This document shows positions 14,290 to 14,644 of a stretch of 64,000 bases of DNA, piece by piece. Made by a program: the position numbers and the translations under genes. The DNA comes from Octopus vulgaris. Lineage: Eukaryota. How positions within the stretch are numbered: the stretch's first letter is position 1; each line of letters begins with the position of its first letter. Location of the stretch: contig OX597820.1 of NCBI GenBank assembly GCA_951406725.2, forward strand, positions 59,334,001 to 59,398,000, given 5' to 3'. Below the pieces are notes generated by a model. The model did no database searches. It saw only the letters and a list, made by a program, of their open reading frames with translations, and was not told where the DNA came from.

Positions 14290-14644
14290 CATTATGTAAA
14301 CCTCGAGGAATGTGAAGACGCAGGCTGGAAAGCGGAACATTTTCCAATCGAAGTCGGATGTAGAGGGTTCGTTGGACACAGTGTGAGATGACTGTTGTTA
14401 TCACTAGGCCTAACTCATCGTAAAGTCAATACCACCATGACTGATATCCAATCTACAGTGGAGAAGGCTAGCCACTGAATTTGGTTAAAAAGAGACGATG
14501 AGCGATGGCTAGAAGATGCCGTTGAGAGGTAGGCCCCGAAACGGTGCACATTCTCTCCTGATGACCCCATACACTTGCTGACTTCCAGTATACGGAGCTT
14601 TTGAATTGTAGCACTTGCATTTGCAAGTTGTTTGCAAGACATCT
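14290..14644 (+). mobile_element. 3' end of a REL-endonuclease non-LTR retrotransposon (Hero/R2-superfamily-like), inserted in Gypsy gag
   Basis: Translates EECEDAGWKAEHFPIEVGCRGFVGHSV..LG..VEKASH*IWLKRDDERW, followed by a 3' UTR. Second copy at 23776-24196. Confidence 0.75.
14516..14572 (+). ncRNA. Non-circularly permuted hammerhead-like motif in the LINE 3' UTR
   Basis: AUGCCG-UU-GAGAG-GUAGGCCCC-GAAA-CGGUG-CACAUU-CUCUC-CUGAUGA-CCCCAUAC. Same strand order as 4675-4736. Confidence 0.55.

Follow-up and report, generated by a model that had tools for sequence, protein, structure and literature searches.

The hammerhead ribozyme was divided by Eckert et al (2023, PMC10085705) into three blocks that were taken to be unbreakable, which gives six possible orders, and as far as the accessible text of that paper goes a break between A9 and G10.1 was assumed to be impossible. 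Ribozymes of type SGC have been validated and cleave in vitro, and the same text places them only in metatranscriptomes and not in the genomes of known organisms (PMC10085705). Canonical type I hammerheads are described, in the accessible parts of the Penelope and retrozyme literature, from GIY-YIG elements or from non-coding retrozymes, where they lie near the end of the retroelement and in partial tandems; cutting of multimers and circles have been proposed, and internal priming and AT-rich targets are described (PMC6765202, PMC11167929, PMC8557442, bioRxiv 10.64898/2026.07.22.740005). Naiad PLEs are reported there as lacking canonical hammerheads, some of them having core halves. A Penelope-like element could insert in vitro without its hammerhead, and according to the text available of that study it was mainly uncut RNA that served as template (PMC11167929). 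A different ribozyme class is found in R2, L1Tc and RTE, where HDV-like ribozymes lie at the 5' end and define that end, and where by self-cleavage they free the RNA of the non-LTR element from a longer transcript (PMC6765202, PMC13580325, both as far as accessible). Elements of the HERO clade are described, in the part of the source at hand, as having no fixed gene target and as being dispersed, often next to AT microsatellites (PMC4640811).

Here we analyzed a window of 64,000 nucleotides from Octopus vulgaris (the whole stretch of contig OX597820.1 given above), in which the first-pass annotation had marked a scrambled hammerhead at 14516-14572 in the 3' UTR of a LINE. Our tentative proposal from sequence comparison, which we hold with slightly less than even confidence, is that HERO-like LINEs carry a seventh natural hammerhead wiring, by which their mRNA would be cut and then closed into a circle of 3.7 kb that is primed internally, and that this design is common to an unrelated retroelement family in the same genome.

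The core letters and strand order of a hammerhead were present at 14516-14572 as annotated, and from the core letters the predicted cut falls between 14523 and 14524, in agreement with the position 14523 given before. By translation and alignment the motif follows a C-terminal remnant of a restriction-like endonuclease (RLE), which places it in the 3' UTR of a LINE, also as annotated (Table 1). The motif exceeds 14516-14572 by an upstream part of about 55 nt, which is deleted in the window copy, and the cleavage triplet is GUU here vs. GUC in the family, a mutation as judged by comparison with the other copies. We consider it probable that a conserved RNA fold with pseudoknots has decayed in this copy and that 14516-14572 represents its 3' half. 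An Rfam scan of the window gave no hammerhead among 144 matches at E<=1. Plain single-strand folding of the window motif (z -0.78) and of the UTR was no better than that of shuffles, which for the motif can be explained by the fold being pseudoknotted and truncated. The 69-aa C-terminal remnant had no match in Pfam. The LINE remnant is embedded in a broken stretch (window about 13800-14293 and 14645-16200) whose translation resembles gag/pol of what we take to be a Ty3/gypsy-type element, and the ORF at 14909-15355 within it had no match in Pfam.

Table 1. Positions in the window of the LINE remnants, the parts of the motif and the related repeat.
Position	Strand	Feature	Details	Basis
14294..14644	+	5'-truncated HERO-like RLE LINE remnant (ORF end and 3' UTR)		local alignment to copy L009, BLAST to unit L081, translation
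14294..14514	+	C-terminal restriction-like endonuclease remnant	about 70 last codons, two in-frame stops	translation, alignment
14514..14515	+	site where 78 nt are deleted	a', hairpin h, b' and int' removed	comparison with family copies
14517..14528	+	cleavage block	III' 14517-14522, U16.1 14522, N17 14523, I' 14524-14528	
14532..14546	+	strand b, GAAA and 3' strand of helix III	b 14532-14537 (partner b' deleted here), GAAA 14538-14541, III 14541-14546	
14553..14568	+	helix I strand, CUGAUGA and strand a	I 14553-14557, CUGAUGA 14558-14564, a 14565-14568 (partner a' deleted here)	
14569..14644	+	remaining tail to the family 3' end	putative RT priming site, at AT	3' ends of copies
23769..24197	+	another remnant of this LINE, older than the first	a' 24025-24028 and h 24029-24044 retained; CUGAUGA 24110-24116	
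4616..4736	+	copy of an unrelated repeat family with this architecture	a' 4616-4620, h 4621-4653, b' 4654-4658, cleavage block from 4675, b 4690-4694, GAAA 4695-4698, CUGAUGA 4725-4731, a 4732-4736	

The LINE family has 2555 candidates by DNA and 3696 by protein in the 2.8-Gb genome, and its unit is 3.74 kb long. Young copies contain an ORF of 1100-1175 aa with a C2H2 finger, an RT, a CCHC knuckle and a PD..E endonuclease. The ORF of unit L081 (1175 aa) matched RVT_1 in Pfam, and together with the motif scan this identifies a single-ORF RLE non-LTR element of the R2 group; the closest solved proteins among PDB matches were R2 proteins, and named relatives are in fish and lancelets. No relative was found in viral contigs. 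We take the element to be HERO-like on its C-terminal motif and on the label of the first-pass annotation. Copies are dispersed over many contigs, with their 3' ends at AT and often beside AT repeats, which is in line with the absence of a fixed gene target and some preference for microsatellites described for HERO elements. The single ORF with an N-terminal C2H2 finger, RT, CCHC knuckle and PD..E endonuclease, the relatives in fish and lancelets and the dispersal near AT microsatellites are likewise shared with this clade as far as the accessible description goes (PMC4640811). In one locus (L086) two LINE copies are joined head to head, i.e. inverted, and both end in AT repeats. The source genome also contains at least two older HERO-like families (L186-L193) that have their own versions of the motif, with different letters and mostly decayed.

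Relatives were collected by alignment of RLE ends, giving 80 metagenome loci, 5 loci from genome contigs and 8 from other families of the source genome. Three of the loci (L181, L182 and L184) are HERO-like RLE ends with the motif in bacterial genome records, likely host DNA in these assemblies. In 70 loci the sequence extended at least 300 nt beyond the RLE end, and 49 of these had the pattern GAAA-N14-30-CUGANGA in that interval, compared to none of 70 reverse strands and none of 72 ORF segments. As a feature of the family the motif is thus far beyond chance, which the first-pass annotation had held to be less likely in view of two sequence-unrelated instances. The other 21 relatives lacked the exact core pattern within 300 nt, some being decayed or having the pattern further away. 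From the 64 loci with the core pattern and enough flank, among these 93 plus L081, we obtained 37 non-redundant motifs by collapsing at 70% identity.

A single wiring emerged from the 37 motifs, in the order a'-h-b'-int'-III'-UH-I'-linker-b-GAAA-III-int-I-CUGANGA-a. Strand b, which precedes GAAA, has its partner b' upstream, and strand a, which follows CUGANGA, has its partner a' still further upstream; these partners are 30-60 nt away, and hairpin h joins a' to b' without spare bases. The result is a four-way junction opened between A9 and G10.1, in which helix b supplies the G-C pair under G12 from the upstream strand, while the gap that follows A9 is bridged by helix a together with hairpin h. 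When partners were swapped between motifs and searched in the same way, helices III and I passed in 28 of 37 true motifs and in 1.9% of 1332 swaps. The junction of a, h and b likewise passed in 28 of 37 motifs (9 failed), compared to 2.9% of 444 swaps, and all five helices had at least 4 bp in 23 of 37.

This was further supported by a structure-blind MAFFT alignment of 33 of the 37 motifs, from which L141, L182, L184 and L191 were excluded for a poor parse or a decayed look (they were kept in the swap test). In this alignment 86.7% of cells were paired compared to 57.7% in shuffled ones, and two-sided changes occurred in 17 of 19 pairs. The covariation score was 0.717 vs. 0.191 and was reached in none of 500 shuffles, with slid controls at 0.11-0.19 (n=33). 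These counts ignore relatedness, but the margin of the swap test is wide. For helices I and III, 98.2% and 95.2% of cells were paired, and both bases had changed in all 5 pairs of helix I and in 3 of the 4 pairs of helix III; the complementarity of these helices noted in the first-pass annotation is thus borne out in the relatives by covariation and by the swap test. That annotation had also proposed to look for the same motif order with compensatory changes in aligned 3' UTRs of the clade from several phyla. Order and compensatory changes were found, but the relatives, being from metagenome contigs, do not establish several phyla. Between III and int a kink-turn pattern was observed in 17 of 37 relatives with a 3-nt bulge, compared to 0-5 for other bulge lengths, and it was absent from the LINE family of the source genome.

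The family obeys hammerhead rules that are independent of the search, the pattern of which was CUGANGA and GAAA. We tallied nucleotides in 34 motifs, leaving out 3 of 37 with helix III or I shorter than 3 bp. N17 was U, C or A in 14, 12 and 8 motifs and G in none of 34; pair 16.2-15.2 was G-C in 34/34; and position 11.1 paired with an upstream G in b' in 34/34 (32 G-C and 2 G-U). The family thereby has the hammerhead core letters, an N17 that is not G, and helices I and III with covariation. What it lacks is a helix II in which G10.1-C11.1 directly follows A9 on a continuous strand. The first pair of a direct helix II, in which the strand ahead of GAAA would pair with the one following CUGAUGA, was missing in 30 of 37 relatives (29 of 33 in the alignment), 41.2% of its cells were paired compared to 41.6% in shuffled alignments, its mean length was 1.27 bp vs. 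1.14 bp in swaps, and even the youngest copies have C opposite C at 10.1/11.1. The helix II that had been described as weak is therefore replaced by the four-way junction with upstream strands, its direct pairing being at the level of chance. As a continuous helix II fails, the motif of the family falls outside type SGC and types I-III, and its conserved letters and helices suggest that it may work like a hammerhead though it is outside every canonical type.

Type SGC is the closest relative in layout. As far as the accessible text of PMC10085705 allows a comparison with HRIMA-1 and its variants, the LINE fold shares with it the order cleavage site, GAAA, CUGANGA with all core letters, a linker of about 3 nt that separates helix I from the strand ahead of GAAA, as well as two pseudoknots and an extra helix that begins between III and I. 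The block order S-G-C with a short linker is found in the family (N17 to GAAA is 13-16 nt in 30 of 34), whereas an uninterrupted block C is not, and the helix II strand and the interaction strand are both 5' of the cleavage site. In type SGC the partner of helix II directly follows CUGANGA, with one bulged base in shortSGC-1 (PMC10085705, accessible text); in the LINE fold the partners of helix II and of the extra helix are 5' of the cleavage site, and block C is split by the four-way junction. By its predicted pairing the LINE fold is outside the six permutations of Eckert et al, as the accessible text defines them (PMC10085705), and one may think of it as a circularly permuted SGC with the opening placed between A9 and G10.1. 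Of the scrambled topology pointed out in the first-pass annotation, the strand order alone was thus already known as type SGC (PMC10085705, accessible text), and new are the opened core and the retrotransposon host. In the largely open-access literature that was searched, we found no description of the split-core wiring and none of a ribozyme or tandem layout in HERO elements.

The LINE fold resembles the hammerheads of Penelope-like elements and retrozymes in its place near a retroelement end and in partial tandems, and also in the proposed cutting of multimers, circles, internal priming and AT-rich targets (PMC6765202, PMC11167929, PMC8557442 and bioRxiv 10.64898/2026.07.22.740005, accessible parts), but here a split-core form occurs in a protein-coding RLE LINE. 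With the 5' HDV-like ribozymes it shares the predicted freeing of non-LTR element RNA from a longer transcript; unlike these, it lies 120 nt inside the 3' end of the insertion and becomes a 5' element only in head-to-tail copies.

Indirect evidence on cleavage comes from insertions in the genome. Their 3' ends coincide with an AT some 120 nt downstream of the predicted cut. All 7 matches to AT followed by the first base after the cut were insertions of the tail alone, which begin with that base and extend to the 3' end of the family. Four more cut-start insertions (L239, L244, L256 and L257) were found among 41 of 79 rows of a further pattern, mostly point mutants; the 41 inspected rows comprised 30 loci and 11 other rows with a flank other than the common single change, and 38 were left out. 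Together, 11 tail-only insertions start at the predicted cut, 8 of them unambiguously at the base after N17 and 3 ambiguous by one base, and their flanks are unrelated to each other and to the LINE. Controls with the same rule at +2, +10 and +35 gave 1, 0 and 0 true starts compared to 7 at the cut, and a mismatch rule gave 3 starts at the cut and none at -9 or +9; the counts are small, and the control patterns are not equally strict. The cut-start insertions are most simply explained by a cut RNA end. Judged by these starts and by the conserved letters, the family fold probably self-cleaves after NUH in intact elements. The first-pass annotation had proposed a permuted hammerhead core as a conserved 3'-UTR module for processing or RT recognition; a conserved module with covariation, present in 49/70, is what we found, and the cut-start copies support the processing role.

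Most LINE copies read through the cut site intact, which means that the LINE is mostly copied from uncut or rejoined RNA. Among 38 long loci, which were picked for long open frames, 8 exceed one 3.74-kb unit, head to tail. In these the ORF is immediately preceded by a tail piece that varies in length and extends beyond the cut site; apart from point changes, all 8 have an identical tail-to-head joint without added bases. A tail running into the ORF start was also seen in 7 of 28 metagenome contigs. Not one of the 11 cut-start copies enters the ORF, nor does any of the 8 over-unit copies begin at the cut. The two rounds of the over-unit loci differ by 0-2 substitutions in 240 nt (five young loci), and the G run of b' differs between them in 5 of 7.

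We propose the following route. Transcripts of head-to-tail loci would be cut to one unit (~3.74 kb), and the unit would be rejoined into a circle. Priming by the RT of the element would occur at the AT ~120 nt downstream of the cut, and the RT would then proceed around the circle, which could leave truncated read-through copies as well as copies longer than one unit, while cut linear RNA could give the 120-nt tail-only copies. That a unit RNA cut from a tandem transcript, rejoined and primed 120 nt after the joint accounts for all three copy classes is a proposition whose chances we regard as evenly balanced. Against a circle of a single unit stands the b' G run: of 7 comparable tandem loci, 5 have different run lengths in the two rounds, which would call for slippage or an error of assembly.

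The same copies could arise from a ribozyme that cuts but makes no circle, if the RT primes internally on linear, often uncut tandem read-through RNA or jumps between templates, and the cut only frees the 5' end of the downstream unit. The G-run lengths that differ between rounds in 5/7 tandem loci speak for this, as does the ability of R2 RT to carry on across templates that are not continuous. For the Penelope-like PAc it has in addition been shown that initiation can be internal, on RNA that is not processed (PMC11167929, accessible text). It predicts full-length copies that start at the upstream cut, though, and there were none among the 11 cut-start or the 8 over-unit copies; a joint that all 8 share apart from point changes, and into which no bases are inserted, also speaks against it. 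We consider this explanation unlikely but one to be taken seriously. Less likely still is a hammerhead-derived scaffold that does not cut and instead binds the element protein or sets the priming site. The fold is ~120 nt from the 3' end of the insertion, most copies read through the site and the core is opened, all of which would suit a scaffold, and proteins of the R2 group bind their RNA near the 3' end. The kink-turn pattern between III and int in 17/37 relatives would also fit, a kink-turn being a typical protein-binding motif, but this pattern is missing from the family of the source genome. N17 is never G in 34 motifs, and the catalytic letters are kept across elements that are only 33-55% identical in the RLE domain, both of which speak against a scaffold; 11 insertions start at the predicted scissile bond, where presumably no helix would remain to stop the RT. 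Binding and cutting by the fold are compatible with each other.

The form given in the first-pass annotation would be a plain type-SGC hammerhead confined to 14516-14572, its helix II pairing directly but weakly. It does match type SGC in block order and linker, but with the first pair unpaired in 29/33, 1.27 vs. 1.14 bp and C-C at 10.1/11.1 its direct helix II is at chance, and it is contradicted by the covariation; we hold it to be very improbable. Chance matching of short motifs in a repeat is the least credible explanation. The core pattern alone does occur at six other places in the window (spacer 14-34 nt), none of them with both helices III and I, and Rfam gave no hammerhead match, yet the pattern counts (49/70 vs. 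0/70 and 0/72) together with the swap and covariation tests refute it. Our preferred reading remains a split-core ribozyme that probably cuts the LINE RNA and may close it into a circle.

Two further instances in the window bear on this wiring. The second copy reported at 24068-24124 exists as part of the older LINE remnant (Table 1), but it is not an intact motif: AAAA replaces GAAA at 24090-24093, so that G12 is lost, and helices III and I are broken. Both window copies, 14516-14572 and 24068-24124, are likely inactive remnants as predicted from their sequences. The other instance, at 4616-4736 (Table 1), belongs to an unrelated repeat family with 1984 candidates in the genome. The window copy has a mutation in the first G of b', and all five helices had at least 4 bp in 12 of 20 copies of this family (L031-L050). 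The design that the first-pass annotation saw as shared between 14516-14572 and 4675-4736 thus holds, with the same split-core wiring in both families.

Elsewhere the window contains a U6 snRNA copy at 18920-19024 (minus strand, Rfam 107 bits) whose 5' end abuts an AT microsatellite, and a tRNA gene with anticodon GCC at 54398-54468 (minus strand, Rfam 66.7 bits). A 655-aa open frame at 1661-3628 (minus strand) has two CABIT domain stretches (Pfam PF12736), another of 238 aa at 45361-46077 (minus strand) is made of 27-nt tandem units, and a 4-kb nested inverted repeat at 7404-11505 has arms that are 90-99% complementary and inner tandem units of 103/107 nt.

If the proposed wiring is true, hammerhead architectures would extend beyond the six orders thought possible, and a non-circularly permuted ribozyme would be present in animal genomes at thousands of copies. 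This would also account for the failure of standard descriptors to detect ribozymes in some retroelements. Should the circle hold as well, a branch of the R2-group LINEs would be copied by internal priming on a circle and not by priming at a linear 3' end, which would bear on the use of R2-group LINEs as RNA-templated insertion tools.
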